Source: Candidatus Levyibacteriota bacterium (GTDB lineage: Bacteria > Patescibacteriota > Microgenomatia > Levybacterales > GWA1-39-11). Taken from it: 64,000 nt of DNA. Positions within the stretch are counted from its first letter, which is position 1. Each line of letters opens with the position of its first letter. The notes below the pieces were generated by a model. That model had not been told where the DNA came from. It made no database searches and was given only the letters and a program-made list of their open reading frames with translations. The stretch lies in NCBI GenBank assembly GCA_050255815.1, contig JBLMVJ010000035.1, positions 10,727 through 74,726 of the forward strand. The letters are read 5' to 3'. The translations under genes were made by a program, and so were the position numbers. Below are positions 3,376-50,399 of the stretch, one piece after another.

Positions 3376-5523
3376 ATGGAAAGTAAAGATGTGCCGTCAA
3401 TAGTATCAAAGCTGCAGATAGGCGTGTTGTGCACCATGCTGGTATTATTCCCCTTAGCATTTATTCCTAACTCCACTGACTCATTTACCATGGGTAAGAG
3501 CCTAATCCTCATACTGGGGACTTCCCTTCTTATCCTGTTGTGGGCAATTGCATCTATATATAAGAAAGGCTTTGTCTATAAATCCAGCCCATTTAACCTT
3601 CCGGTTGCCCTTTTTGGCGTAGTGGTACTTATTTCCTCCCTGCTCTCCCGCAATATGTATGATTCTCTTGTTGCAGCTGTTCCCGTAGTCTTCTCTTGCG
3701 TATTGTACTTTACCATTTCTTATATGATAAGCAGCAGAAAAACACTTATTTTAGCTATTACCAGCCTTATTGCCGGCGGCGCACTGACTGCCCTTTTAAG
3801 TACCGCTTACTATCTGAAACTTTATTTCCTGCCTATTCCGGGTATTAATAACCAGTACTTTTCCCCGTTTGGGTCAGGCGTACAGGAAGCAATTTACCTG
3901 ATTGCCCTTCTCATGTTCCCGCTTTTCTCCCTATTAAGACAAACAAAGACCAGAAAGCTTACGGTTACGCAGGATTTCCTCATTGAAGCAGGTTTGGGAG
4001 GCGCACTTTTGATAGGGGTAATCTTTATTACCCTTTCCATCATTACTTCCCCAACCAAACCTATTATATTGCCATACACATATGGCTTGCAGATTGCAGC
4101 CGCTACTATTAGCCAGGATATCTCGCGCCTCTTTATCTCATTCCCATTTGGATCCGGCTTTGGCACGTTCTTAAATGACTTTGCCCGCTTCAGACTGCAG
4201 GAGCTGAACGCAAACACTACGTTTGCTACCGCCTACCCATCCTATTCATCATCTTTTGCCCTGGAGCTGATGACTACCACCGGCATCTTAGGCATCCTTT
4301 CTTACCTCTTTATAGTGTTTAAGGCCTTAAAAACCCGCATGAAAGACAGCAATCCATCTTACTTTGGCCTGGTTATCTTATTTATTGTCTCATTCTTCTT
4401 ACCGTTTGGCCTTCCAACTATTGCACTGGTCTTTATTCTTTTGGGAGTCTATTCATCATCCTTATTCCTGGCAAATGACAGGCGGGTACATAATACCAGC
4501 CTCTCACTGGTTGCCTTTGACCAGGGAATTATTTCTACAGAGGATGTGTTGAGGAATGAGCGGGTTAAGTCTGAGAGTATTATCCTGCCGGTTCTTATCA
4601 CTATCTTAGTGGTACTAATAGGAGGATTTGCTTCATTTATGATGGTACGCCTGGTAGATGCAGACACCAAAATGGTTTCCTCTTTGGTTGTACCTGCCGG
4701 TAAGAAGCTCACCATCCAGCAGCAATATGACTTGCAAAGAAATGCGGTAAATGAATTCCCTTATAAATCAGACTACCAGAGGACATTCTCCCAGCTTAAT
4801 ATGAACCTGGCTAACTCTATTGCTGCCAGCCTGCCAAAAGGCGCTACCCCATCAGCAGTTGTACAGCAAAGCGTCAACCAGCTCTTACAGCAATCAGTAA
4901 ATTCAGCCAGAAGCGCTGCTGATATAGCACCGCTTACTTCAACCAACTGGTCCAATCTGGCACAAATTTACCGGAACCTGATAGGCGTGGGCCAGGGAGC
5001 TGACCAGTTTGCCATTGCAGCCATGAACCAGGCAACACTGTTAGACCCAACCAATCCATTCTTAAGGCTGGACTACGGTGGTATTTATTACCAGTTAAGC
5101 CAGCTGGATGCAGCCCAAAACCAATTCCAGATTGCCATTAACCTGAAGCCTGACTTTGCTAATGCCTATTACAATCTGGGCCATGTGATAGAGTCCAAAG
5201 GAGACCTTTCTACCGCACTTTCTCTCTACCAGACTACCCTTTCCCTGGCCGGAAACAATCCAACAGATAAAAAGAAACTCAGTGATGAAATAGAAGCATT
5301 GAAGAAAAAGATTAATGAAACAGCAGCTACTCAACAGCAGCAGACACCGGTAAACCTGCAGACCAGCGCAGGCCAGCAGCAACCTATTGGCATTAACGCT
5401 CCTTCAGCTCAATTTCCAGCACCTAGCAGGCCGGTAAAACTTCCTCCACCTCCTGGTGCCAGCGCTTCTCCGGAACCGTCTCCTTCGGCTGCTCCCAGGC
5501 CTACGGCCACCCCCACACAATAA
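3376..5523 (+). CDS. Polytopic membrane protein with C-terminal TPR repeats; O-antigen ligase (Wzy_C)-like, paralog 2
   Basis: Starts 2 nt after the stop of the preceding gene. Collinear similarity to paralog 1 (e.g. 'NMYDSL', 'FGSGFGTFL', 'QNQFQIAINLKPDFANAYYNLGH'). Confidence 0.8.
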   Translation: MESKDVPSIVSKLQIGVLCTMLVLFPLAFIPNSTDSFTMGKSLILILGTSLLILLWAIASIYKKGFVYKSSPFNLPVALFGVVVLISSLLSRNMYDSLVAAVPVVFSCVLYFTISYMISSRKTLILAITSLIAGGALTALLSTAYYLKLYFLPIPGINNQYFSPFGSGVQEAIYLIALLMFPLFSLLRQTKTRKLTVTQDFLIEAGLGGALLIGVIFITLSIITSPTKPIILPYTYGLQIAAATISQDISRLFISFPFGSGFGTFLNDFARFRLQELNANTTFATAYPSYSSSFALELMTTTGILGILSYLFIVFKALKTRMKDSNPSYFGLVILFIVSFFLPFGLPTIALVFILLGVYSSSLFLANDRRVHNTSLSLVAFDQGIISTEDVLRNERVKSESIILPVLITILVVLIGGFASFMMVRLVDADTKMVSSLVVPAGKKLTIQQQYDLQRNAVNEFPYKSDYQRTFSQLNMNLANSIAASLPKGATPSAVVQQSVNQLLQQSVNSARSAADIAPLTSTNWSNLAQIYRNLIGVGQGADQFAIAAMNQATLLDPTNPFLRLDYGGIYYQLSQLDAAQNQFQIAINLKPDFANAYYNLGHVIESKGDLSTALSLYQTTLSLAGNNPTDKKKLSDEIEALKKKINETAATQQQQTPVNLQTSAGQQQPIGINAPSAQFPAPSRPVKLPPPPGASASPEPSPSAAPRPTATPTQ

Positions 5524-5575
5524 GGGTTTAGGGTTTAGTTCACACAAAGAATCGAGCAATCAAAATAAACTCCCA

Positions 5576-5626
5576 CCTTAATTTCATCTCTTGAATATGA
5601 AACCATGGAGAAACGAATGAGTGAAC
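5576..5626 (+). repeat. Dispersed ~55-bp repeat element, copy A (CCTTAATTTCATCTCTTGAATATGAAACCATGGAGAAACGAATGAGTGAAC)
   Basis: Similar to copies at 22700-22752 and 44778-44834. Lies ~50 nt after the stop of 3376..5523. Confidence 0.6.
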
Positions 5627-5827
5627 CACAGGACCCCAAATCAGACAGCTTCAAGCTTTTAGATTCATCCCAAGGGTAATAATTTTTAACTATACCCTAT
5701 ACCCTAAACGCTATTTCTCGAGCTCCTTTGAAATAAAAATATCAATCAAGTCCTTGAGCGAGAAAAATACCGGGAGTCTTTGGCAAGCAAGCAGGTCTAC
5801 GAGTGCGCCAAGAGTTAACGGTACACC

Positions 5828-6952
5828 CTATTGGAGGAAGGACAGAGGATTCTGGTTGCCGGAGGCTGAACGTACTTCAAAGTGTAAATGCGGTCCCGTA
5901 GTCCTACCGGTCACCCCTACCCATCCTACCACCGTCTTTCCGGCGGTTACCCTATCCCCTGCAGAAACACCCAAACCACTCATATGGGCATATAGCGTAG
6001 AATACCCATTATCACCGTGAATCACCACGTGGGTTCCATAGCCGTAATTCCAACCGCTGGGGTACGCAGCAGACACTACGCCGTTCTGTGCGGCTATAAT
6101 AGGCGTCCCAATAGGCGCGCCTAAGTCAACTCCCGGGTGGTACCAGTAGAATCCCTGGTTCAGGGTTCCTCTGATAGGCCAGGTAAACCCGGCGTCTGTT
6201 ACGGTAACCGGACCGCTTGCTATATACGTCTGCCTCACATACTGCGGACTTACCTGCTCTTCAGGCTTCACCCCATCAGGAACTATAATAATCTGACCGG
6301 TAACCAGTGAGAATGTCTGGGGATTTGCAAAATCGTTAAACGGAAAATCTACTATAGCCTGCGCGTTTACATTGTATTTTTTAGCTATGGAATAAATAGT
6401 ATCACCCTCTGCAACTTTATGGGAAATTCCGGTGACCGGCAGGATCTTGAGGTTATCGCCTATAGAAATGTCATCCCCGGAGAGGTCATTTGCCCACTTG
6501 ATAGTGTCTGAAGAAATTCCAAATTTAGAAGCTATAGTAGAAATGGTATCTCCTTTCTGCACGGTGTAGGTAATAACTTTGTCACGGACTCCTACCGTAT
6601 TTTGGGTTTGGAAGACGTTATCCTGGGAAAGCGTGAGGGAATCAGCCTGGGGGGACTGGGCAAAGGAAAGCATGCTTTTCTGGGTAGGCAGCAGCTGGGA
6701 ATCAGTAATAAACGGGGAAATCATAACCCCTACCGTCAAAATAACCATAATGCTGACATGCAGGAACATACGGTTTCTCCTGCCGCGCCTTATTAAAACG
6801 CCCTTTACTATATTGTTTTTCTGTTTTTCAAACTCATTGGAGATAAAAATAAACTTGTCCTGTATGTAAATTTTGAAGAAGATGGAGAAAGCTTTTGCTT
6901 CAGAAAGGATAAAACCAATACTTTTTCTAACCGTTTTCAACGTATTTCTCAT
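5828..6952 (-). CDS. LysM-domain peptidoglycan-binding M23 family metallopeptidase
   Basis: N-terminal TM segment. Two LysM motifs ('YTVQKGDTISTIASKFGIS', 'HKVAEGDTIYSIAKKYNVN'). M23 signature 'HxxxD ... GPHLHFEVR' at the C-terminus. Confidence 0.9.
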   Translation of the reverse strand: MRNTLKTVRKSIGFILSEAKAFSIFFKIYIQDKFIFISNEFEKQKNNIVKGVLIRRGRRNRMFLHVSIMVILTVGVMISPFITDSQLLPTQKSMLSFAQSPQADSLTLSQDNVFQTQNTVGVRDKVITYTVQKGDTISTIASKFGISSDTIKWANDLSGDDISIGDNLKILPVTGISHKVAEGDTIYSIAKKYNVNAQAIVDFPFNDFANPQTFSLVTGQIIIVPDGVKPEEQVSPQYVRQTYIASGPVTVTDAGFTWPIRGTLNQGFYWYHPGVDLGAPIGTPIIAAQNGVVSAAYPSGWNYGYGTHVVIHGDNGYSTLYAHMSGLGVSAGDRVTAGKTVVGWVGVTGRTTGPHLHFEVRSASGNQNPLSFLQ

Positions 6953-19054: not shown

Positions 19055-19885
19055 TTACTCTACCATGCGGCCAAAGAAGATGCGGCCGGCATCAGTGGCT
19101 ATGACGCGGGAAACTACTACCTTTATAGTCTTATCTATGAGGTTTTCACCGTTTTCTACTACTATCATGGTACCATCAGGCAAGTACCCTACCCCCTGGT
19201 TAGGGCCTTTTCCACGTTGCACTATCTTCACAAAAAACTCTTCACCCGGAACCGCCGTAGTCTTTAAGATATTTGCCATTTCAAACAAATCTATAGACGT
19301 GGCACCGGTTATCCGGGCTTTTTTAGAGAGGTTGTAGTCACATGTAATAATCCGTCCACGGGTCTTTCTGGCATAGCCAATAATCCGTTCATCTACCGGC
19401 TTTTTTCCGTCCTCATCATCTACGTTTAGCATCTTTACCCCGCGCATCTTCCGGAAATCCTCCAGGCTCTTTAAAGCGTTCCTGCCACGTTCTTTTTTAA
19501 CGTCATCTTTAGAATCCGCAATGTTCTTTAATTCATCTAAAACACCGGAAAGGATGACGAAATTACCAATAAATACGCCAATTTTTACCAGGTCAAACAC
19601 GCGGCCGTCTATAATAGCGGATGTATCCAGAATAAAACCGGGATCTTCTTTTTCTTTACTTGACCGTTTTCTGGAAGCAGGCCTGGGGACACTCTGGACT
19701 ACCCGCTTTGCTACTTCTTCAGCAATCTGGGCAACTACTTTAGGCGGAAGTAAAATGCCCTGCACTGCCTGGCGCGCTATCCCACGCGCATTTTTATTAG
19801 ACACTATCACTTCTGGGATCTCCTCCGTGCTTTTACGAGGTTTTTTTACTGCTGTTTTTTTTGTGGATGATTTCTTAACTGCCAT
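19055..19885 (-). CDS. PIN and TRAM domain protein (YacL-like)
   Basis: PIN start 'ILDTSAIIDGR'. C-terminal TRAM-like 'VKIVQRGKGPNQGVGYLPDGTMIVVENG...VVVSRVIATDAGRIFFG'. Adjacent to radA as in Firmicutes. Confidence 0.7.
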   Translation of the reverse strand: MAVKKSSTKKTAVKKPRKSTEEIPEVIVSNKNARGIARQAVQGILLPPKVVAQIAEEVAKRVVQSVPRPASRKRSSKEKEDPGFILDTSAIIDGRVFDLVKIGVFIGNFVILSGVLDELKNIADSKDDVKKERGRNALKSLEDFRKMRGVKMLNVDDEDGKKPVDERIIGYARKTRGRIITCDYNLSKKARITGATSIDLFEMANILKTTAVPGEEFFVKIVQRGKGPNQGVGYLPDGTMIVVENGENLIDKTIKVVVSRVIATDAGRIFFGRMVE

Positions 19886-21434: not shown

Positions 21435-21449
21435 ATTTCCGAGGGAATT

Positions 21450-21505
21450 TAGAGTCTAGAATTCAGATTTCAGAATTAAATTTTGAATTCTAAATTTTGA
21501 ATTCT
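21450..21505. repeat. AT-rich palindromic repeats of the TTCAGAATT / GAATTCTAAATT family in the radA-rpsA intergenic region
   Basis: 'aattttgaattctaa' occurs twice in tandem. Related motifs at 34487-34555 and 42783-42845. Confidence 0.6.
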
Positions 21506-21510
21506 AAATT

Positions 21511-22699: not shown

Positions 22700-22752
22700 C
22701 CAATTCCATCACTTGAAACAGAACCCATGAGAAACGAGTGAACGAGCGCCCG
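22700..22752 (+). repeat. Dispersed ~55-bp repeat element, copy B
   Basis: CCAATTCCATCACTTGAAACAGAACCCATGAGAAACGAGTGAACGAGCGCCCG aligns with copies A and C. Confidence 0.55.
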
Positions 22753-22881
22753 GAAAGAACACACATGAGGGACTGTTGCGAAGCGGTTCTTTCAGTGAGT
22801 GAACGAGTTTTGAATGGATGAATGGTTCATCGTGATGGCAGTTTTTGCTCAACTTTTTGCTGCCAAAAAGTTGAAAGAAAC

Positions 22882-25529: not shown

Positions 25530-25573
25530 ATCCCTTGCTTTATACTTAATACATACTACATAATACTTAATAC

Positions 25574-27983: not shown

Positions 27984-28093
27984 ACCAAGAAATTCAGTAG
28001 AAATAGATAGAAATTCATAGAAACTAAATTGTATTTATTGCTGCACTTCAGTTTCTACCAATTTCAACTAATAGCTACCATTTTCTATGCCTT

Positions 28094-28894
28094 ATGTTGC
28101 GCAGTCTGAAATTATTTTTAGTAGAATGCCAGCTGGTGATTGAGGTAAAAAGCCTCTCCGTAGTGTGGTTTTTAGCCTCCATTTCAGGATCTATCCTTAT
28201 GATTATCTTCTGGACCGGTGTTACCAGCGCAAACGGCGGCTCCATTTCCGGCTGGAACACGGGAAGTTTTGCCACGTACTACCTCCTGGTTGCTCTGGCG
28301 GGGTCTCTCTTTATAGCCCATATAGAAGAAAATGTTTCCTTTCAAGATATCCAAAGAGGTGAGCTCTCTATGTATCTTTTGAAACCCTTCCCTTATTTTA
28401 GGTTTAAGCTGCTGATTGAGCTCCCCTGGCGCTTCATGCAAGGTGCTTTTGCCATTATAAGCATGATTTTAGTATTTCTGCTGGTTCCTCACCTGATCCA
28501 GATCACCCTTTCCCCGGTCCTGCTTCCTATGGCAATTTTATTAGTTTTCAGCGCCTTTTTATTGTCATTTACTTTCAAAATGTGCCTGGGGCTTCTGGCT
28601 TTCTGGTTTACAGAAATCAACTCACTCCTGCAGCTGACTGAAATTATTCTTACCCTCTGCGCAGGCTTCATAGTGCCATTGGTGTTCCTCCCAAATTATT
28701 TGCAAACCCTTTTTAATATCCTTCCGTTCTCTTACATGGTCTACTACCCTATCCTGGCACTTTTAGGAAAACTTAACCCAGACCAAGAAATACGAGTGTT
28801 TGGTATACAAATGTTGTGGACCTTTTTATTCTATCTACTCTATAAATTTCTCTGGAGGAAAGGAAGGCTGAAATTTACTGCCGTAGGACACTAA
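28094..28894 (+). CDS. ABC-2 family transporter permease, paralog 1
   Basis: Six TM helices. Shares the 'G.LS.YLLKP' motif with the next three genes. Confidence 0.7.
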   Translation: MLRSLKLFLVECQLVIEVKSLSVVWFLASISGSILMIIFWTGVTSANGGSISGWNTGSFATYYLLVALAGSLFIAHIEENVSFQDIQRGELSMYLLKPFPYFRFKLLIELPWRFMQGAFAIISMILVFLLVPHLIQITLSPVLLPMAILLVFSAFLLSFTFKMCLGLLAFWFTEINSLLQLTEIILTLCAGFIVPLVFLPNYLQTLFNILPFSYMVYYPILALLGKLNPDQEIRVFGIQMLWTFLFYLLYKFLWRKGRLKFTAVGH

Positions 28895-28895
28895 T

Positions 28896-29681
28896 ATGCA
28901 TTACCTAAAGATCTTAAAAGCGCTGATAGTCATTAACACCGCATACGCGTTAGAGTACAAGGCGCATTTTGTGGCCCAGGTTTTTGCAAGCCTGGCCTGG
29001 GGCGTATTTTCCGTGGTCAACATGATCCTTTTGACGTACCGCGTCCACTCTGCTTTTGGCTGGAGCAGGAATGAGCTCATCCTTCTTTCCGTTATGGTTA
29101 ATGTAGTCTATGGCATCCACCGTATGTTGTTTGATGTAAACTTCTGGAGATTCTCCCGGATTATCCATTATGGAGAAATGGACATGGTGCTGTTAAAGCC
29201 CGTGGACTCCCAGTTCCAAATGAGCATGTGGATCATAGATATTAGCGGTATCTTCAGATTTTTAGTTGCCCTAGCGCTCACCTTTATCCTGGTTTTTGCC
29301 ATGCACTTTCCTATTTCTCTGACAAGTGTGTTGATTGCCACTATTTTAAGCCTGGCCGGTGTGGTCCTTCTCTATGCTTTCACCTATATCTTCCTAACCC
29401 TCACCATCTGGTTCTCTAACCTCTCTAACCTGATGGGACTGGTGAATAATATCCTTTCTATGTCCCGGTATCCAAAAGAAATGTATGAAGGATTAGGCAC
29501 CTACTTTTTCTTTTTTCTCTTGCCTTTAATTGTTATAATAAGCACTCCTACAAAAGCTCTCATCCAAAAGGGGAACCTGTTAGATAGTCTGCTTTTAGTA
29601 CTCTTTACTATCCTATTTTTTGCAATCTCAAGGGTGTTCTGGAAATTCGCCCTGCGGTTCTATGTCAGTGCTTCAGGATAA
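28896..29681 (+). CDS. ABC-2 family transporter permease, paralog 2
   Basis: 'YGEMDMVLLKPVDSQF' motif. Polytopic. Confidence 0.7.
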   Translation: MHYLKILKALIVINTAYALEYKAHFVAQVFASLAWGVFSVVNMILLTYRVHSAFGWSRNELILLSVMVNVVYGIHRMLFDVNFWRFSRIIHYGEMDMVLLKPVDSQFQMSMWIIDISGIFRFLVALALTFILVFAMHFPISLTSVLIATILSLAGVVLLYAFTYIFLTLTIWFSNLSNLMGLVNNILSMSRYPKEMYEGLGTYFFFFLLPLIVIISTPTKALIQKGNLLDSLLLVLFTILFFAISRVFWKFALRFYVSASG

Positions 29682-29684
29682 ACA

Positions 29685-29758
29685 GGAAATTAATAGATAT
29701 TCATAGAAATTAAGAAATTGATTGTAATTACACAATTTAGTTTCCATGAATTTCGCGA
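29685..29758. repeat. 74-bp palindromic intergenic element, copy 1 (GGAAATTAATAGATATTCATAGAAATTAAGAAATTGATTGTAATTACACAATTTAGTTTCCATGAATTTCGCGA)
   Basis: About 95% identical to 48527-48599. Terminal inverted repeat GGAAATTAA...TTAATTTCC. Confidence 0.85.
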
Positions 29759-29792
29759 CCGTAGGGAGCTTATTTCCAAAAATTTCTTTCTT

Positions 29793-30587
29793 ATGTATAA
29801 ATATTTCCGTATCTTCACCAATGTCTGGGGCAAAGCCCTTTCTTACCGGGTCAACTTTATCATGTGGCGTGTCCGTGTGGTGCTCCAACTTCTAACGTTA
29901 TTCTTTTTGTGGTCTACTATTCTCACCAACAGGACTGCTATCTTTGGCTACTCTACTTCCCAAATGCTCACGTACATTTTAGGCACTTCGCTCATTTCTT
30001 CTGTAGTTTTGTCCAGCCGCACTTTTGAAGTAGGAGACCAGATAAATGACGGTACGCTTTCTAATTTTCTGATCAAACCCATGTCCTACATAAAATACTG
30101 GTTCTTTTATGACCTGGGGGATAAAGCCAGCAACATATTTTTCTCTATAATCGAATTAACGATAATCATCTTTCTGTTCCGTCCGCCCCTTTATGTCCAA
30201 ACCAATCCCACCTATCTCATGTTTACCCTGGTTTCCGCGTTTTTAGCATTACTTTTATACTTTTACTTTGGCTTTTTACTGGGGCTTTTAGGATTCTGGA
30301 GCAATGAAGTGTGGGGACCACGCTTTATTTTCTTTATCATCATTAACTTTTTTGCCGGCGCTATGTTCCCGCTGGATGCGCTGCCAAAACAAGTGGTAAG
30401 CGTTCTCCAGCTTTTCCCATTCCCGTACCTTCTATACTTTCCGCTGAAGATTTATTTAGGAAAGATTTCTTTCCCGTTGATTATTCAAGGGCTCTTCATC
30501 TGTTCCGTGTGGATGGTAGGATTGTATTTTATTTGTAAATTTATCTGGTTAAAAGGATTGAAATTGTATGGGGCGCAAGGGAGATGA
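29793..30587 (+). CDS. ABC-2 family transporter permease, paralog 3
   Basis: ORF 29718..30587. Start moved to the ATG at 29793 because the 5' part overlaps the repeat element. 'DGTLSNFLIKPMSY' motif. Confidence 0.65.
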   Translation: MYKYFRIFTNVWGKALSYRVNFIMWRVRVVLQLLTLFFLWSTILTNRTAIFGYSTSQMLTYILGTSLISSVVLSSRTFEVGDQINDGTLSNFLIKPMSYIKYWFFYDLGDKASNIFFSIIELTIIIFLFRPPLYVQTNPTYLMFTLVSAFLALLLYFYFGFLLGLLGFWSNEVWGPRFIFFIIINFFAGAMFPLDALPKQVVSVLQLFPFPYLLYFPLKIYLGKISFPLIIQGLFICSVWMVGLYFICKFIWLKGLKLYGAQGR

Positions 30588-30655
30588 GAATGTATCAAGT
30601 GTTAAGTAGCAAGTAGTATGTATTTTCTTGTGTCTCTTTGACTCTTTTGTAACCT

Positions 30656-31453
30656 TTGACTCTCATAATTATGTCTAAATATTTTAAAATCTGGTTCACT
30701 TCTATGCTGCACCAGGCGCAGACTGCGTTTGCGTCCCGCCTGGGGGTGGTAGTGTTTTTAGTGGGAAAGCTCTTGCGCTTCTACTTTTTCCTCCTCTTCC
30801 TCTTTTTAATAGTCCATCAAACAAAAAGCATAGCGGGATATTCTCTATGGGAAGTAATTTTTTTCTATGCAACGTTTAATTTAATAGATTCTTTTCCCCA
30901 AATGGTCCTCCGATCTGTCTATGGATTTAGGAATTATGTAGTGTCAGGATTTTTTGATTTTTATATGGTCCAACCAGTCTCCCCCCTATTTAGGTCACTT
31001 TTTGGCGGTTCTGATATTCTTGATATCCCAATGCTATTTTTATCTATTGGATATATTATTTATTCTTCATTTATGCTACCCCATTTTTCAATCACCGGCG
31101 TCTTTTTATACATCTTACTGATCTTAAATGCCTTTATTATCTCTTTAGCATTCCATATTCTGGTCTTATCTATTGGGGTTATAAGCACGGAGGTGGATAA
31201 TACGGTAATGCTCTACCGGGACCTGACACAAATGGGAAGGCTGCCTATAGATATTTATAAACAAGCAGTAAGTTTTATCCTGACGTTTGTAATTCCCGTG
31301 GGAGTTATGATCACGTTTCCCGTAAAAGCGCTTCTGGGCGCACTTTCTCTCCAATTCATAGGATACTCTGTGGTATTTTCCGTGGTATTTCTTACGCTCT
31401 CACTCTTTCTCTGGACAAAGTCATTGAAAAATTACACCAGTGCCAGCAGCTAA
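30656..31453 (+). CDS. ABC-2 family transporter permease, paralog 4
   Basis: 'SGFFDFYMVQPVSPLF' motif. Polytopic. Confidence 0.7.
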   Translation: MTLIIMSKYFKIWFTSMLHQAQTAFASRLGVVVFLVGKLLRFYFFLLFLFLIVHQTKSIAGYSLWEVIFFYATFNLIDSFPQMVLRSVYGFRNYVVSGFFDFYMVQPVSPLFRSLFGGSDILDIPMLFLSIGYIIYSSFMLPHFSITGVFLYILLILNAFIISLAFHILVLSIGVISTEVDNTVMLYRDLTQMGRLPIDIYKQAVSFILTFVIPVGVMITFPVKALLGALSLQFIGYSVVFSVVFLTLSLFLWTKSLKNYTSASS

Positions 31454-33719: not shown

Positions 33720-34000
33720 TCAAGAGCAAAACCGGTAAGATCCGAATCTACTCGAATAGTTTGGGGTAACTTCTAGGCTACCCCATTCTTCTCGAATATT
33801 TCGAATTAACATTAACAAACACTAGCGCATTCGAATTGATTCGATTTAAATTCGAACCATTCGAGAATGATTTCTTAGAATCCACGCTATTTGGATCGAC
33901 CTATTAGTACAACTTCGCTGAAACAGTTACCTGTCTTACACGTGTTGCCTATCAACCTGATGGTCTCTCAGGGGTCTAAAAGAGATCTTATCTTAGGGTG

Positions 34001-34033
<33 letters not shown>

Positions 34034-34268
34034 CATGGAAATCTAGCTACCCAGCAGTGCACTTGTAAGTACAACTGGCACACCAGGGATTTCCTCACCC
34101 CAGTCCTCTCGTACTAGGGGCGACTCCCTTCAAATCTCAAACGGTTGTCCTGGATAGAGTCCGAACTGTCTTACGACGTTCTTAACCCAGCTCGCGTACC
34201 TTTTTAACTGGCGAACAGCCAGACGCTTGGGAGCTTCTCCACCCCCGCGCTAAGATGAGCCGACATCG

Positions 34269-34699
34269 CTGTCAATCCAATCAGTAATTAAGAAAGACTT
34301 AAAAACTTAAAACTGATGGTGATACTCTTGTTACCAAGAGCCTCTGACTATACCTTCATCCGCCAACTGGCGGAGCTAGTCGTATGATACAGATTATAAA
34401 TTTCTCTTTATGAGATGAATCCATATCTCACCCTCTCACCTATGCTGGTGAGGGGTTCAGTCGATAGGGTCCAAAAGAAATTTAAAATTCAGAAGTTAAA
34501 ATTCAGAATTAAATTCTTAATTCTGAAATCTGAATTCTTAACTCTATTTGAACCTCGGTATTACCCTCTTGTGTTCAGAAAGTAGGGTTTCACCGATTTG
34601 GACTAGTTATTTAAATTATTAGTACCTTGTTTTTTGACTCAAATACTAATAAATACAGGCAAGAGTATTACTACTCAGGCGCCCCGATATTTTCATATA
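34269..34699 (-). other. Putative group I intron (~431 nt, no ORF) in 23S domain V at the GGCACCU|CGAUGUCGGCUC junction (E. coli ~2500 region)
   Basis: Exon sequences that are contiguous in E. coli are separated here. The 5' exon ends in U and the insertion ends in G. Confidence 0.6.
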
Positions 34700-34742
34700 A
34701 GGTGCCAAACCGCATCGTCGCTGTGGACGCTTGGATGCGATC

Positions 34743-34775
<33 letters not shown>

Positions 34776-35229
34776 AAGCTACGTCCCAACCACTAAGGAA
34801 CGCAGGATCACTAACACCTGCTTTCGCACCTGCTCGACTTGTAGGTCTCGCAGTCAAGCTGGCTTGTGCGTTTGCACAATACGCTCCGATTTCCGTCCGG
34901 AGTTAGCCAACCTTTGTACGCCTCCGTTGCACTTTAGGAGGCAACCTCCCCAGTTAAACTGCCCACCAGACACTGTCTTTTAGCCGTATTTTTATGCGGC
35001 ATTAAAGTAATGCTCACTCATCTTAAAGAGAGGTATTTCATTGATGACCGAAGTCTCCCTCCTATACTAAACAGTTAAAATAAGCTTGCAAATGTCAAGC
35101 TACAGTAAAGCTCCCGGGGTCTTTTTGTCCTAGGACAACCAGGCCGCGTCTTCACAGCCATCTCAATTTCGCCGTGTAAATGTTCAAGACAGTTACTCAG
35201 TCGTTCTACCTTTCGTGCGGGTCGGAACT

Positions 35230-35548
35230 CCATTGTTTTAATGTTCCAACATGGAACCTCACAGTCGCCTGTGAGATCGGACTATATCTTTCCCTTACCA
35301 AATTGGTGAGGGATCTAGCGTCTAGTCTCTGAGGGTTTTCCGATAAATCGGAATCTTCCCTGCTGATTGGCTCCACCAAGCAGATTTTTACTCTTACGAG
35401 TACTGTTGGATACTGAGCTGTTCCAGCAAATAGCTAGATTTTACACTCATTTAGGTTAACGATTGTGTTCTTACGTGACTGTTTTGCTTGTTCCTGATGT
35501 GTATCCCGATTAGATCGGGACTCGGGCAAGTTGATTTGACCCAAACCA
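35230..35548 (-). other. Putative group I intron (~319 nt, no ORF) in 23S at GUCGGGU|AGUUCCGACC (E. coli ~1951 site)
   Basis: Exons flanking the insertion are contiguous in E. coli. The 5' exon ends in U and the insertion ends in G. Confidence 0.6.
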
Positions 35549-37359
35549 ACCCGACAAGGAACTTCGCTACCATAGAACAGTTATAGTTACTGCTGCCGTT
35601 CACCGGAGCTTTAGAAAGCGGCTCCACCTTGCGGTTTCACCACCCACTATTGACTTACCGGCACTGGGCAGGTGTCAGCCCCTATACGTTACCTTTCGGT
35701 TTTGCAGGGACCTGTGTTTTAGATAAACAGTCGCTAAGTAATCTTTTGCTTAACCTGGATGTTACTCCAGGCAGGGCATCTCCCATAGGTTACGCCCAGC
35801 TTTTGTTGCCGAGTTCCTTGAACATTTGTCTCACGGTCGCCTTAGTCTACTCGACCAATCCACCTGTGTCGGTTATGCGGTACGGCAAAATATAGCACTC
35901 CTCACGAATCTTTTCCTGAAGACTGAAACTTACGATCCTCACCCTACTTTCTTGCGATTTCAGATTTGCATTCGCCACTTAATTAAACACTTTGACGGAT
36001 TTGCCCATCAAAACTATCTTATGGCTTGGACCCTGTTTACAGGGCGATCCTTTCCACTCTTGTCCATCCTTGAGTAATAACGCACTATACTCTGTAGCAG
36101 AATATTAACTGCTTGTCCATCCGGCTACCCCGCGCTTTATGACGGGCCACCGTTAGGAGCCGACTAACGCTGCGCTGACTTACATTGCGCAGCAAACCTT
36201 GGATTTTCGGCGGACGCCGTTCTCAGGCGTCATTCGCTACTCATGCCGGCATTCTCACTTGTAAACGCTCCACCATACCTTACAGTACAGCTTCGCTGCA
36301 TTTACGACGCTCCCCTACCACTTGCTCCGATAAATCGGAGTCAAATCTCCATCGTCGGTATTAAGCTTAATCCTCGATCATTTCCGGCGCCATTCTCCAA
36401 TGTCGACTAGTGAGCTGTTACGCTTTCTTTAAAGGATGGCTGCTTCTGAGCCAACCTCCTAGCTGTCTATGGAAAATGACTTCCTTATCAACTTAGCTTA
36501 AATTTAGAGACCTTAGATGGGAGTCTGGGCTGTTTCCCTTTAGACCCACGAGCTTAGCCCCGCAAGTCTGACTCTCTATTAAGTTTTTACGGTATTCGGA
36601 GTTTGATTGATCCTGAAAAGTTGCCTCTCCAGAGACCATTCAGTGCTCTACCCCCGTAAAAACATACAAAAGGCTATACCAAAATATATTTCGGGGAGAA
36701 CCAGCTATCTCCAGGTTCGTTTAGTATGTCACCCCTTACCACAAGTCGTCTCAGATCATTGCTGCGATCACGAGTTCGGGCCTTCCTCATCCTTTCGAAC
36801 AAGTTCACCCTGCTCATGGTAAGCTCACCTGGTTTCGGGTCTTTTGCAATGCGCATTTAGGTATCCCAGTTAGAGATCGCTTTCACTATGCCTCCCCCCT
36901 CACCTTTCCAACGAAAATTCCAACCTTTGTTTTAAATCGAGCTTGTTTCGATAATATTTCAAAGTGGTAATCCTCATTAGAATGGTGAGGGGTTAGACTG
37001 CGCAATACAAAAACTCACCGGCTCATTCTTCAATAGGCACGACGTTATACCCTTGCGGGCACTTCGTCTGCTTGTTAGCTAATAGTTTCAGTAACTCTTT
37101 CATTCCCCTCCCGGGGTGCTTTTCACCTTTCCCTCGCGGTACTAGTTCACTATCGGTAGATGTTGATATTTAGCTTTGGAGCGTGGTCGCCCCGGCTTCC
37201 CACAGGGTTTAATCGTACCCCATGGTACTCAGGAACAGGCAAGAAGTGAAAATCATTTCAAATACGGGACTATCACCCTCTTTGGTCTCTTTTTCCAAAA
37301 CGTTCTTCTATGATTTCCATTTGTGACTTCTTTTGCATTTAAGCAAGCCGTCCTACAAC

Positions 37360-37660
37360 CCCCCTCACCTTTTTATCACTAACCTTTTTAAAAGTTCTTG
37401 CCAAGCTTTTGCGCGCTTCTTAAGCGCCTGCTCTCTTCTAAAAGCTAATTTATAAGAAGTATATGCTTCATAATAAATAAGCTCCCATGGCAAAAACTTT
37501 TTAGTATATATAGACTTTCCTTTATTATGGTCCGTAAATCGAGTTTTAAGATCTTTTGTTGAACCAATATAAAACTGGTCGAACTTTACACTCTTAAGAA
37601 TATACGTGTAGAACATAAGTCTATTATAGTTATTTAAGTTAGGAACAAAAAGGTGAGGGG
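37360..37660 (-). mobile_element. Hairpin-bounded intervening sequence in 23S domain I carrying a GIY-YIG nuclease ORF; ~15-bp terminal inverted repeats CCCCCTCACCTTTTT / AAAAAGGTGAGGGG
   Basis: Replaces the variable region after AGCGAACG (E. coli ~270-350). Flanking rRNA blocks identified on both sides. Confidence 0.6.
37365..37616 (-). CDS. Small GIY-YIG nuclease superfamily protein (COG2827-like, 83 aa) encoded inside the 23S rRNA gene
   Basis: 'YTYILKS...FYIGSTKDLKTRFTDHNKGK...PWELIYYEAY...RREQALKK' matches the small URI-domain endonuclease family. Same strand as the rRNA. Confidence 0.75.
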   Translation of the reverse strand: MFYTYILKSVKFDQFYIGSTKDLKTRFTDHNKGKSIYTKKFLPWELIYYEAYTSYKLAFRREQALKKRAKAWQELLKRLVIKR

Positions 37661-38222
37661 TTTGAGCTGTTCCGCGTTCGCTCGCCGCTACTGACGGAAT
37701 CTCTGTGATTTCTTTTCCTCGGACTACTTAGATGTTTCAGTTGGTCCGGTATCCCGCCGACTACTAATATATTAATCTTGCGACTAATAACTTCATAGCA
37801 GGCTCCCAGTTAAACTGGGGGGTTTCCCCATTCGGACACCACCGGATCATAATGTCTTCGGCCATTCCCCGGTGATTTTCGCGAGCCAGATGCGTCCTTC
37901 TTCGGTCAACACCTCCTAGGCATCCACTATTAGCATGAATCAAATAGCGTAGATTCTAAAAAACCAATTCATTAAAAACCATGCCTCGGCTTGAAACATG
38001 GAAAATCCGCCACCCGGCGGATTTTTTTAATCCTCCGTCCCGATTAGATCGGGACTTCGGCCTAGTTGTTTGTTTGTAATTCTTCCAATTATTAATGAGC
38101 AAAACGCTTTTTGCGTTGCCCTCGGATGTAATCCGAGGCCATATCTCTCCTGTACTCGTTTCTCGCCGGGAAGTATATTGCCCTTCCACCAGCGAGGAAC
38201 CAATACAAGAAAACTAAAAAAG

Positions 38223-41853: not shown

Positions 41854-42789
41854 TTATGCTTTTTGCATGGTGAGCCAGCGCTCTATATCTAGTGCTGCCA
41901 TGCAGCCAAATCCTGCGGCAGTTACTGCCTGGCGGTACCTATCATCCTGGACATCCCCGGAAACAAAAACACCTTCTATATTAGTCCTCACCCGTTCTTT
42001 TGCGCTTACATACCCGCTTTGCGTCAAATCTACCCCTTTAAAGATAGATGAATTTGGCGTATGGCCAATAGCCACAAATATACCGTCTATAGGCATTTCT
42101 GTTACTTCCTGGGAGACGGTATTCTGGATTTTAACCTTCTCTACTTTGTTCCCCCCCAGTACTTCAACAATTTGAGAGTTAAGCATAACTTTAATTTTTG
42201 GGTTATTTTTTACTTTATCCTGCATAATCTGGGATGCCCTAAAGCTGTCCCTTCTATGGAGCAAGGTAACTTCTGCAAAATTGGTGAGGAAGTTTGCTTC
42301 CTCCATAGCAGAATCCCCTCCGCCTACAACTATGATCTTTTTTCCCCTAAAAAATGCCCCGTCACAGGTTGCACAGTATGAAATACCGCGCCCGGTCAGC
42401 TCTTTTTCACCCGGTACGCCCAGTGTTTTTGAATTCTCACCGGTAGCCAGGAGAAGGGCTTTGCCTTTATAGGTCTTCCCGTCCGCTGTTATAGAAAACG
42501 GAGAGGATGCCCCTGTCAAATCTGTAGGATCAGCATCCGCATTCACGAACGTTACTCCAAAACGCTCTGCCTGGCTTCTCATTTCCATCATAAGCTGGGG
42601 TCCCTGTATTCCTTTGGGAAAGCCCGGGAAGTTTTCAACCTCCGTAGTAAGCATGAGCTGGCCACCCCAAGTCTTCCCTGCAATGATAAGAGTTTTAAGT
42701 CCGGCTCTGGAGGTATAAATTCCTGCAGTGAGGCCGGAAGGACCGGATCCTATGATGATTACATCAAAAATGGGTAATTCAGAATTCAT
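41854..42789 (-). CDS. trxB: Thioredoxin-disulfide reductase
   Basis: FAD motif 'IIGSGPSGLTAGIY', redox-active 'CATCDG', NADPH motif 'VVGGGDSAMEEA'. Confidence 0.95.
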   Translation of the reverse strand: MNSELPIFDVIIIGSGPSGLTAGIYTSRAGLKTLIIAGKTWGGQLMLTTEVENFPGFPKGIQGPQLMMEMRSQAERFGVTFVNADADPTDLTGASSPFSITADGKTYKGKALLLATGENSKTLGVPGEKELTGRGISYCATCDGAFFRGKKIIVVGGGDSAMEEANFLTNFAEVTLLHRRDSFRASQIMQDKVKNNPKIKVMLNSQIVEVLGGNKVEKVKIQNTVSQEVTEMPIDGIFVAIGHTPNSSIFKGVDLTQSGYVSAKERVRTNIEGVFVSGDVQDDRYRQAVTAAGFGCMAALDIERWLTMQKA

Positions 42790-42845
42790 AATTCAGAGTT
42801 AATAATTAAATTTAGAGTTTAGAATTTTATATTCTAAATTCTTAC
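42783..42845. repeat. AT-rich palindromic TTCAGAATT / TCTAAATT repeats between trxB and trxA
   Basis: 'gaattcataattcagagttaataattaaatttagagtttagaattttatattctaaattc'. Same family as 21450-21505 and 34487-34555. Confidence 0.55.
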
Positions 42846-44736: not shown

Positions 44737-44777
44737 GTGCTATTCTCTTCAACTCTGCGAAATCATATAAACAACTT

Positions 44778-44834
44778 CCTTAATTTCATCACTTGGAATA
44801 TAAAACCATGGAGGAATGAATGAGTGAGCGCCCG
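44778..44834 (+). repeat. Dispersed ~55-bp repeat element, copy C
   Basis: CCTTAATTTCATCACTTGGAATATAAAACCATGGAGGAATGAATGAGTGAGCGCCCG. ~90% identical to copy A over the first 45 nt. Confidence 0.6.
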
Positions 44835-47924: not shown

Positions 47925-48485
47925 CTACCACGTCTGGCACGCAGCGTCTCCCATACAGACTTTCCATGATATGCTGTTTCTAGGCCCATACTGGTCAAAC
48001 ATGCTATCCTTTGGATTATTAAGGTACTGGGTTACCTCTACTCCGCAGGCAATAAGCGCATATTGGATTCCGTCAGACCGGTAAAGAAAAGCTTTCTTTG
48101 TCCCGTTCCCGGCAGGAGTAGGACAAGAAGTATCCCCACCGGTAGGGTCTGCCGGCAGCGCTTGTATGTACTTAGGGGCCAGGTTGGGTATCCATCCCCC
48201 TGCTCCACCATTATTACTAAACGTATCCCCTCCGTCAGAGGAATAATAAGCGTCACCTGTTGAAGGATAATTTCCGTTATCGTTGTAATATTGTTCCAGC
48301 GCTCCCTGCAGCTGCTTCAGGATGGTACGCCTCTGGGAATCCCGTGCTTTTGCAAATTGGGTAAGGGGGTTTAGAACAGAGAGGAGGACTACAGCAAGAA
48401 CTCCTAAAATTCCTATAACGGTAATCAGCTCAATGAGAGTGAATCCGGCACGAGTTTCTATAAGCTTTGGGGCAGAAAACCTCAT
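47925..48485 (-). CDS. Type IV pilin / pseudopilin with prepilin N-terminal cleavage-methylation domain
   Basis: 'AGFTLIELITVIGILGVLAVV' class III signal. The C-terminal region is Gly-rich with Cys pairs. Confidence 0.85.
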   Translation of the reverse strand: MRFSAPKLIETRAGFTLIELITVIGILGVLAVVLLSVLNPLTQFAKARDSQRRTILKQLQGALEQYYNDNGNYPSTGDAYYSSDGGDTFSNNGGAGGWIPNLAPKYIQALPADPTGGDTSCPTPAGNGTKKAFLYRSDGIQYALIACGVEVTQYLNNPKDSMFDQYGPRNSISWKVCMGDAACQTW

Positions 48486-48526
48486 ATCTTAAGTTAACCA
48501 CAGGAAAATTGACTAGTCAATGAAAA

Positions 48527-48599
48527 GGAAATTAATAGATATTAATAGAAATTAAGAAATTGATTGTAATTGCACAATTAATTTCCATGAATTTCGCGA
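48527..48599. repeat. 74-bp palindromic intergenic element, copy 2
   Basis: GGAAATTAATAGATATTAATAGAAATTAAGAAATTGATTGTAATTGCACAATTAATTTCCATGAATTTCGCGA. 42 nt upstream of the pilin start on the opposite strand. Confidence 0.85.
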
Positions 48600-48626
48600 A
48601 GCAAGTTTCTATCAGTTTCTAAGGTG

Positions 48627-50399
48627 TTATTTCTTTTGCGCTTTGAAGATTTCTTCTACTTCTTGCAGGGTGGTTGCGTCTTCCGGCTTTTTGTCATCCC
48701 TAAATTTTTCTAACCTGGGAAACCGCAAAGCATAGCCCGGCACATCTACGTCAAATGCTGACCCTGATTTGGAAGGCTTCATACTGCGTCCTGCGGTATG
48801 CACGGGGGATCGGGTCAACTCATCAGCCTTAATTTCTACCACTATTTCCGGGTTTACCCACACATCCGGCTCCAGCCATTTATCTACTTCAAACAGTACT
48901 GGCTTGTGGCTTGCCTTAATCCTCTCTGCCCTCCTGTGCAGCTCTTTCCATTCTTCATCAGTCAGTCCGGTTCCCACCTTTGCTATAGTTTCAAATTTAT
49001 CCTGTTTCTCATTGTAAATCCCTATCAAAAACGCTCCTATCCCAAAAGACGTCCGCTTTCCCCGTCCTGAATAATACCCCATGACTACACAGTCCACCGT
49101 GTCTTCCAGTTTTGACTGGTATGACCGTTTCAGCTTTATCCAATTCCAGCCCCTGGCGCCCGCCTGATACGTACCGTCTAGTTTTTTAGCCAGGATTCCC
49201 TCCAACCCCCGGGAAATGGCATCATCAAAAAAGTTTTCTATTTCTTTTGCATCCCCCAGAACCTGCTCTTCTGCCTGATAGATAGTCTTTCCTTCTTTAA
49301 TGATTCTAGAAACTGCCTTCCTGCGGTCTTTATATGCTTCAGGGATATAATTTTTTCCATTCAGGTACAGCAGGTCAAAAACCATCAGCTTCAGGGGAAT
49401 CTTTTTTGCCATTTCTTCTATGTCATACTTCCGCTTTCTTTGGGCGGTCAGCTGGAACGGAAGATATTCATTTGTTTCCGGATTGTAGGCAATTGCTTCC
49501 CCCTCCAGAATCACTTCATCCGCATCTATTTGGGAGACCAGCCCTTCCTCTACATCCGGGTACATAAAGGTAACCTCTTCAAGATTTCGCGTGAATAGCT
49601 TTACTCTAAACCCTTTCCCCTTTTCCCTCTTCAGGTGCGCCTGTAGCCTAAATCCGTCAAATTTTGGCTCTATAGCGCATTCCCCTATCTTATCTACAAT
49701 TTCCTGCCCTGAAGAAAGACGCTCTGCGCGGGCCATAAGGATGGGGGTAAAAACTGATGGCTTTATATGTGATAAGCCCTTCAAGCCATCCTCTTTTATA
49801 GTTTTTCCTATTATTCCCAAATCAGGCCGGATGTTATATGCCCGCTCAATTTCCGGTCTGGCTTTCTTATCTTTCCCCAGCATCCAGGATAAAGAATCCA
49901 GAACGGTCATATCAGAAAAGCCCAGGCGGAGCTTTGCCACCGGAATCCTGGAAACAAATCTGCGGGATAACGGATCTAAATCCTGCAAAAGCTCTGCCAT
50001 AAGACCTATTTTTTTCTCTACAGAACCCGCTCCTCCACTTTCTGCAACCTGCCTCAACACTTCAAACACCTGGGAAACCGTACCATCTCTTCCCATTTTT
50101 GTTCCCCCCAGGCTTTGGGCTATCTCACCCAAATCCCCAACTTTTTTATATTCTGCTGCAGCTTTTTCATCTGAAACAGCAAAAGCCTGGGCTATAGCTC
50201 TTACCATCATCTTGTCAGCCATCCCAAACTCTAACGGTTCAAAAAGCGGCGCTACCCTTCCCTGCAAAAGATACATTACTTTATCAAAAACGTCCGCCGG
50301 CACTTTTTCAAAAAGTTCTGAGAGAATGAGAATCATGTCATTGCGGGAAGCAGTGTTTTCCAGTTTTTCTAAATGGATTGATAGCTCTGAGAATTTCAT
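48627..50399 (-). CDS. lig: ATP-dependent DNA ligase
   Basis: Motif I 'EPKFDGFRLQ', adenylation and OB domains, 590 aa. Confidence 0.95.
   Translation of the reverse strand: MKFSELSIHLEKLENTASRNDMILILSELFEKVPADVFDKVMYLLQGRVAPLFEPLEFGMADKMMVRAIAQAFAVSDEKAAAEYKKVGDLGEIAQSLGGTKMGRDGTVSQVFEVLRQVAESGGAGSVEKKIGLMAELLQDLDPLSRRFVSRIPVAKLRLGFSDMTVLDSLSWMLGKDKKARPEIERAYNIRPDLGIIGKTIKEDGLKGLSHIKPSVFTPILMARAERLSSGQEIVDKIGECAIEPKFDGFRLQAHLKREKGKGFRVKLFTRNLEEVTFMYPDVEEGLVSQIDADEVILEGEAIAYNPETNEYLPFQLTAQRKRKYDIEEMAKKIPLKLMVFDLLYLNGKNYIPEAYKDRRKAVSRIIKEGKTIYQAEEQVLGDAKEIENFFDDAISRGLEGILAKKLDGTYQAGARGWNWIKLKRSYQSKLEDTVDCVVMGYYSGRGKRTSFGIGAFLIGIYNEKQDKFETIAKVGTGLTDEEWKELHRRAERIKASHKPVLFEVDKWLEPDVWVNPEIVVEIKADELTRSPVHTAGRSMKPSKSGSAFDVDVPGYALRFPRLEKFRDDKKPEDATTLQEVEEIFKAQKK

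Follow-up and report, generated by a model that had tools for sequence, protein, structure and literature searches.

The DNA analysed here is a stretch of 64,000 nucleotides, referred to below as the window. It carries two near-identical short intergenic elements on the + strand, with cores at 29684-29758 (c1) and 48526-48599 (c2). c1 lies between ABC-2 permease gene 2 (28896-29681, + strand) upstream and ABC-2 permease gene 3 (29793-30587, + strand) downstream, and c2 lies between an ATP-dependent DNA ligase gene (48627-50399, - strand), whose stop faces it, and a prepilin-type gene (47925-48485, - strand), whose start faces it. Pfam annotation confirmed this gene context as it was first stated, and the original prediction that the copies occur in both orientations also held: c1 and c2 are both on the + strand, and are opposite relative to transcription (c1 genes +, c2 genes -). 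A third element, c3 (about 27984-28093, + strand), occupies the spacer that separates the ABC ATPase gene from permease 1. The ABC locus consists of one ABC ATPase gene and then four ABC2_membrane_6 permease genes (window 28094-31453), a layout that is kept in Levybacteria relatives, and its permease paralogues share only 24-32% identity. The pilin gene has a promoter of its own, predicted by consensus on the - strand at 48483-48520: TTGACT (48515-48520), 17 nt, TTAACT (48492-48497), 6 nt, and the ATG (48483-48485). c2 sits upstream of this promoter and adjoins its -35 box; the promoter is kept in a sister locus, lies just outside c2 and does not belong to the repeat.

The c1/c2 pair, its anatomy and its folding

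The report of two copies about 95% identical was borne out by blastn within the window, which aligned c1 29684-29758 with c2 48526-48599 at 94.7% identity over 75 columns, both on the + strand, with an E value of 4e-27. The copies differ by three substitutions (29702 C/A, 29730 A/G and 29740 G/A) and one T indel. A 45-nt pattern built from c1 and c2, with one degenerate position, matched the window at the c1 and c2 sites only and matched nothing in shuffled sequences; copies in the host were thus counted in 64 kb of its genome. Identity between the two copies is 93-100% within the tract and 40-60% directly 3' of ...TTTCGCGA, that is, beyond 29758/48599. Terminal inverted repeats had been proposed for the pair, and the pairing of GGAAATTAAT with ATTAATTTCC does exist, perfect in c2 and imperfect in c1, but the right-hand repeat is not terminal: 13 shared bases, ATGAATTTCGCGA, come after ATTAATTTCC, which is therefore internal. 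The true ends of the tract, AGGAAATTAAT and (in reverse complement) TCGCGAAATTCAT, match via the repeated motif only. The c2 core holds a perfect 12-bp stem, GAAATTGATTGT/ACAATTAATTTC. The elements, 75-111 bp in length, are non-coding: no frame is free of stop codons, and none is kept between c1 and c2 across their 1-nt indel. On the minus strand the frameshift leaves ORFs of 18 and 24 codons that differ in sequence, so that no small ORF is conserved, and a small-ORF reading was rejected on this ground.

Each of the c1, c2 and c3 spacers is one long imperfect palindrome. In c1 and c2 the left arm is made of four GAAATT-like units about 10 bp apart, and a short centre is followed by a right arm of AATTTC-like units, which is broken by a small GC-clamped mini-hairpin. 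The whole c1 palindrome runs from the permease 2 stop to the permease 3 ATG (29682-29792, + strand; ATG at 29793), with GAAATT-like units starting at 29686, 29696, 29706 and 29714, AATTTC-like units starting at 29739, 29749, 29771 and 29781, and the mini-hairpin GCGACCGTAGGGAGC (29755-29769, + strand; GUA triloop, tandem G.A) within the right arm. The whole c2 palindrome extends between the pilin -35 box and the stop codon of the ligase gene (48520-48626, + strand), with GAAATT-like units starting at 48528, 48538, 48548 and 48556, AATTTC-like units starting at 48580, 48590, 48604 and 48614, and the mini-hairpin GCGAAGC (48596-48602, + strand), in which a GAA triloop is closed by C-G. The 95% tract extends from the left arm through the centre to halfway along the right arm, about three quarters of the palindrome, and identity between c1 and c2 ends after the first 4 bases of the mini-hairpin. 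c3 has four GAAAYT-like units on the left and AGTTTC/AATTTC/ATTTTC on the right. A weaker related sequence suspected at about 27985-28060 corresponds to this element and proved real but marginal, since nhmmer found it on both strands at 28000-28088 with an E value of about 1e-3. c3 appears to be an older, diverged member of the c1/c2 family. Its similarity to c1 was also considered as a relic of an ancient tandem duplication of a permease pair; this was rejected, because with paralogues only 24-32% identical a neutral similarity between the spacers could not have survived.

The predicted folds are moderate. On the + strand, c1 and c2 each give z = -2.5 against shuffled sequences; for c1, in which the + strand is the sense strand, the fold has -17.5 kcal/mol. 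The sense strand of c2, the - strand, folds at -12.2 kcal/mol with z = -1.1, no better than shuffled sequence. c3 reaches z = -3.1 on the + strand and -3.4 on the - strand. By sense-strand z (-2.5 for c1, -1.1 for c2), the c1/c2 hairpin is the weakest of its class, which is described below. The mini-hairpins have only 2-4 G-C pairs and no U run after them, and neither a sigma-70-like promoter nor an intrinsic terminator was detected by the scans within c1, c2 or c3.

Related spacers in relatives and in other CPR genomes

Levybacteria relatives keep the gene order around the ABC operon. In two of them (L021 and L023, with permease 2 about 61% identical), the gap between the ATPase gene and permease 1 is 5 bp, compared with 110 bp (c3) in the window, and the gap between permeases 2 and 3 is 2-3 bp, compared with 111 bp (c1). 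In the sister species L020 (82% amino-acid identity), permeases 2 and 3 are separated by a 153-bp spacer with no significant similarity to c1 (alignment score 23, null 17.4 +/- 2.5). L020 was therefore rejected as a c1 "empty site", its spacer being unrelated to c1. At the c2 site, the ligase and pilin genes stand in the same order in the sister contig L027, whose ligase is 84% identical, and the pilin promoter is preserved there as well (ATTGAC-N17-TTwACT-6 nt-ATG), but c2 is missing; the L027 spacer is 54 bp, and that of the window is 141 bp, 87 nt longer. The exact boundaries of the c2 insertion relative to L027 are ambiguous (two alignments) because of the internal repeats. As both are absent from the same junctions in relatives, c1 and c2 are, as far as sequence comparison goes, lineage-specific gains. 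The sister pilin itself differs at its N-terminus, where extra repeated "GFTL" segments precede the GFTLIEL prepilin motif (L027 2811-2950); the pilin of the window is without them.

Related elements in other lineages were first found by scanning genome and metagenome contigs for exact 21-22-mer words. Most of the exact-word matches were chance matches in coding sequence (I-E-I-K-K-L-I), and related non-coding elements were found as well. A c1/c2 profile in nhmmer detected three CPR loci (L017, L004 and L002) at E = 5e-7 to 8e-5. One element, L017_1, takes up the 107 bp that separate the divergently oriented genes galT and pth, with four GAAATT units on its left and four RTTTC units on its right, and matches the c1/c2 left arm at 37 of 40 bases, though the Pth protein is only 43% identical to that of the window. 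Its near-identical counterpart in L004 sits at a contig end, which is consistent with repeats of this sort breaking assemblies. A second element 0.9 kb away, L017_2, has AATTTCGCGAAGC in common with c2, and the heptamer GCGAAGC of the c2 mini-hairpin recurs in it. The orthologue of L017_2, L004_2, has ACGAAGT, a compensatory change of G-C to A-T in the mini-hairpin, and eight array units against five. In L002, whose L16 clusters at 90% identity or more with Candidatus Doudnabacteria, a GAAATT-type element lies between rpsC and rplP. Across six family members, the GAAATT/AATTTC pairing of three helices is kept in 87.9% of cells, compared with 30-64% in slid controls; double changes occur in three pairs, and covariation is weak, most of it coming from invariant motif pairs. 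Part of the similarity across lineages arises by construction, since the first matches were picked by an exact 21-22-mer, and another part may reflect convergence among AT-rich arrays of low complexity; the shared AATTTCGCGA(AGC) lies outside the exact-word query.

Palindromic arrays built on other motifs occupy further spacers of the window. Among them, an AGAATTC-type family with a 7-nt period has copies at 21435-21510, 42773-42842 and 34476-34545, pairwise 80-84% identical, of which the first lies between S1 and radA (S1>radA), the second between trxA and trxB (trxA>trxB) and the third inside a 23S gene insertion. A GTATTAA-type pair, built of GTATTAA/GTAGTAT heptamers, lies at 25530-25573 and 30588-30655, inverted and 5 kb apart, with 29-nt arms that are 83% complementary; its copy at 30588-30655 is a gained spacer between permeases 3 and 4, where the gap in relatives is at most 8 bp. 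The 23S rRNA gene (window 33883-37949, - strand) has 4067 nt compared with 2925 nt in the model. It contains a group I intron at 35258-35526 and a second, unannotated insertion, which begins at the point where the LSU match ends, near model position 2526 (window about 34684), and carries the AGAATTC-type palindrome at 34476-34545. The ligase and permease 2 proteins of the window are 100% identical to NCBI proteins from a Candidatus Levyibacteriota MAG; a group I intron and extra 23S insertions agree with such a CPR/Patescibacteria host.

In the S10/spc ribosomal-protein operon of Doudnabacteria (L029, L031, L033/L034, L002), a palindromic array of 67-140 bp stands at all junctions examined. 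The median fold z of the junction spacers is -4.1 in L029, compared with 0.0 in L021, a Levybacteria relative free of arrays. All-against-all comparison of the spacers revealed multi-copy families within a genome, 83-99% identical between junctions; the L033/L034 lineage, for example, has within-genome pairs of 96.8% over 93 nt and of 99% over 99 nt, and L031 has one of 90% over 92 nt. Relatives with L16 at least 90% identical have the same array family at different junctions, and the number of CAATTTC units also varies (3 in L033 against 2 in L042). By these sequence measures, the c1/c2 pair appears to behave exactly like the multi-copy array families of Doudnabacteria. In the CPR genomes sampled, intergenic spacers are very short, yet palindromic arrays stand in tightly coupled junctions. 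The L002 ribosomal-protein operon also holds three copies of another repeat, unlike the arrays and about 200 bp long (reverse complement 3994-4448, 5579-5790 and 6364-6566; 99-100% identical), with GC-rich inverted ends (...CTCCCCAAAGCATGGGGAG...).

For 41 palindromic spacers (from L029, L031, L033, L034, L002 and the window), the strand antisense to the mRNA folded better than the sense strand in 27 cases against 14, by a mean of 2.7 kcal/mol (Wilcoxon p = 0.011, the 41 copies not being independent). G-U pairs numbered 123 in antisense and 83 in sense. A sense-strand bias in G-U pairs was thus rejected as evidence for an RNA hairpin, since the bias runs the opposite way.

Kinship with known repeats and the preferred reading

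The elements answer to the general description of interspersed palindromic repeats: at least two dispersed copies of high identity, intergenic, capable of forming hairpins, and absent from the orthologous sites of relatives. The original prediction of a MITE- or REP-like repeat held in part. The elements are small, non-coding, palindromic, intergenic, multi-copy and absent in relatives; target-site duplications, terminal inverted repeats matching an insertion sequence (IS), GTAG and RAYT were not found. Target-site duplications were sought at c1 (...ATAAAC / CCGTAG...), at c2 (...ATGAAA / AGCAAG...) and at the better-defined, full-length pair of 96.8% identity in L033, with none seen at any of them, and the flanks of c1 and c2 have no tetranucleotide in common. 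The check for a partner transposase came out negative, in that the ORFs of the 64-kb window encode no transposase, RAYT/Y1_Tnp, other mobile-element, Nop or Tas domain recognised by Pfam. GTAG, the criterion for a REP, occurs once, in c1 only (29762-29765) and outside the tract shared with c2. In blastn searches of phages and plasmids nothing matched, a gapped pattern gave only chance matches in viral contigs, and a literature search for intergenic palindromes or MITEs of CPR returned nothing relevant.

REP/BIME elements (REPINs) of Enterobacteria and Pseudomonas are mobilised by RAYT (TnpA-REP). Like them, the elements described here are short, extragenic, imperfect palindromes in multiple copies of high intra-genome identity, which stand between co-transcribed genes and would form passive hairpins in mRNA; unlike them, they lack a conserved GTAG/CTAC, occur in a CPR host with no RAYT gene in the window, and have arms that are tandem arrays of a 6-10-nt motif. 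The Correia/NEMIS element of Neisseria is a MITE that is cleaved by RNase III when co-transcribed. The resemblance to it lies in palindromic intergenic inserts (100-150 bp in Correia) near the starts or ends of genes, in either orientation, with hairpins in polycistronic mRNA, but no counterpart was found here of the 26-bp terminal inverted repeats, the TA target duplication, the IHF site or the outward promoters that Correia elements have. Rickettsia palindromic elements (RPEs) are likewise small palindromes that have multiplied in a reduced genome, where even constrained sites such as RNA genes tolerate them; the parallel here is the copy of the AGAATTC-type sister family inside the 23S gene insertion. 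RPEs, however, typically insert in frame within protein-coding genes, whereas c1, c2 and c3 lie strictly between genes, are rich in AT and have periodic arms. With pneumococcal BOX (boxA-boxB(n)-boxC) and ERIC/IRU, the elements have in common a modular intergenic build, a variable number of internal units and hairpin potential; modules measure about 45-60 bp in BOX, and ERIC consists of 127 bp of unique sequence, whereas the unit here is 7-11 nt and is mirrored on the other arm. Arrays of TIGR-Tas systems, which are common in CPR, are built of 36-nt units in which edge repeats alternate with loop repeats, bounded by UG...CCA boxes and with spacers of 8-10 nt, and are adjoined by a Tas gene with a Nop domain (PMC12045711). 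The elements resemble such arrays as short-period, weakly conserved CPR repeats that are missed by standard annotation, and were rejected as TIGR arrays: the period is 8-10 nt, the boxes are absent, the array forms a single palindrome, and the window has no Nop-domain or Tas gene.

We consider that c1 and c2 are probably duplicative, REP/MITE-like, AT-rich repeats, "GAAATT-array palindromes", which were recently copied once and are passively co-transcribed. They would be REP/MITE-like in kind, yet the marks that define either family were not found; they are best described as interspersed palindromic repeats in a little-studied host group. GAAATT-array palindromes would then be one of several kinds of motif-array palindrome in CPR (Patescibacteria) intergenic spacers, and such spacers would have been gained at junctions that were once tight. 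The 95%-identical tract of 75 nt was probably produced by one recent copying event between the two loci. Because no target-site duplication, matching IS or mobilising enzyme was found in the window, the mechanism of this copying is something we infer: we incline to ectopic gene conversion or template switching that involved two family members already in place, with transposition of a 75-81-nt unit as the alternative route. Conversion is favoured by the identical tract stopping inside the palindrome and the mini-hairpin, and by the missing target duplication. With no promoter or terminator of its own, the element would be transcribed passively with its neighbours and could fold as an imperfect AU-rich hairpin. 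Such inserts may be tolerated in compact operons, in either orientation, because the hairpin brings the upstream stop and the downstream start or promoter together. If this reading is right, a candidate riboswitch or attenuator is removed from the window, and three odd spacers of the ABC-2 operon are explained as repeat insertions.

Alternative explanations and further observations

The palindromes could instead be functional intercistronic hairpins that act after co-transcription in the processing or stability of mRNA or in translational coupling, through an RNase III-like cut that leaves near-leaderless downstream mRNAs or through bridging of stop and start for re-initiation. The palindromes begin at the stop codon and end 3-8 nt short of the following ATG, the downstream genes have no Shine-Dalgarno sequence, and most first genes appear to be leaderless. 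In four Doudnabacteria, all ribosomal-protein junctions examined are filled while the occupant family changes, and the apex mini-hairpins covary (GCGAAGC with ACGAAGT, GGCCGAAGGCC with GTCGCGAAGCGAC; GNA/UUCG). The occupation of every Doudnabacteria junction examined fits a required function better than a purely selfish repeat. This explanation is nevertheless doubtful, given the better folding of the antisense strand mentioned above, in non-independent copies, and the position of c2, which is not between coupled genes but upstream of the pilin's own conserved promoter. Moreover, L017_1 lies between divergent genes and cannot be transcribed as one hairpin, and Levybacteria relatives do without these spacers.

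The elements may alternatively be classical MITEs, non-autonomous units of 75-81 bp moved by a transposase encoded elsewhere in the genome. The putative enzyme, in the manner of the IS200/IS605 or RAYT type, would recognise either ends that resemble GAAATTAAT / GAAATTCAT or the GC mini-hairpin. The identical tract is sharply bounded and its ends form imperfect inverted repeats, the same families stand at different junctions in close relatives, and the elements contain small extra-stable hairpins. The missing target duplications, at the full-length L033 pairs as at c1 and c2, the flanks without a common tetranucleotide and the window without a transposase all speak against this mode of movement, as does a tract that covers only about three quarters of the palindrome and stops within the mini-hairpin, and we regard it as rather unlikely. 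A broader proposal, which we likewise regard as rather unlikely, is that the palindromes belong to an undescribed, CPR-wide class of motif-array palindromes that in some lineages is built into operon expression, being required for the processing of polycistronic RNA to near-leaderless mRNAs or for re-initiation by bridging stop and start where Shine-Dalgarno sequences are largely absent from the genome, and is renewed by copying between junctions. The class would consist of fast-evolving hairpins with periodic arms and a GC-clamped GNA/UUCG apex, present at every junction of those lineages, those of the S10/spc ribosomal-protein operon included.

An action at the DNA level seems improbable. 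The helically phased GAAATT (A-tract) units would then curve the DNA or form a putative protein-binding array, with a regulator or nucleoid protein acting on both the ABC-2 operon and the pilin promoter. A3T2 units with a period of about 10 bp suit this idea, as do the placement of c2 against the pilin -35 box, the position of an UP element or activator, and the occupation of a divergent promoter region by L017_1. It is contradicted by the 7-nt periods of sister families of the class, which are not helically phased, and by unrelated neighbours (rplP, galT/pth, vapBC, permeases, pilin) that give no regulon logic; in addition, c1 and c3 are within an operon and have no recognisable promoter, and in the sister species the pilin promoter is kept where c2 is absent. 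A discrete structured RNA (sRNA, attenuator or riboswitch) in two gene copies is very improbable: c1 and c2 are indeed both on the + strand, where their folds reach the moderate z given above, but neither matches an Rfam family at the gathering score (E values up to 10 bring chance eukaryotic miRNA/snoRNA matches far below threshold), no promoter or terminator is common to both copies, the indel and stem-weakening substitutions of c1 are uncompensated, and the covariation in the family is weak and mostly from invariant motif pairs. The shared regulatory RNA hairpin or attenuator that had been offered as an alternative is thus not supported, with the opposed orientation of the copies relative to transcription and the c2 sense z of -1.1 counting against it as well.

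Given palindromic arrays in the tightly coupled junctions of CPR genomes, either hairpin inserts may be nearly neutral for coupled translation, or CPR may use intercistronic hairpins systematically. Both outcomes bear on operon expression in organisms that are mostly leaderless and poor in Shine-Dalgarno sequences, and palindromic arrays also matter for genome annotation and assembly. In the window, the ATG of most first genes is preceded at a distance of 6-8 nt by a TATAAT-like box and lacks a Shine-Dalgarno sequence (e.g., at 19885, 23343, 32062, 33350, 61142 and 63682), which suggests that leaderless mRNAs may predominate in this Levybacteria genome. A separate conserved intergenic motif of about 60 nt (CCTTAATTTCATCACTTGAATATAAAACCATGGAGAAACGAATGAGTGA) occurs three times in the window, at 5565-5624, 44767-44827 and about 22700-22760. 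It has no Rfam match and could be a small RNA or a 3'-end element.
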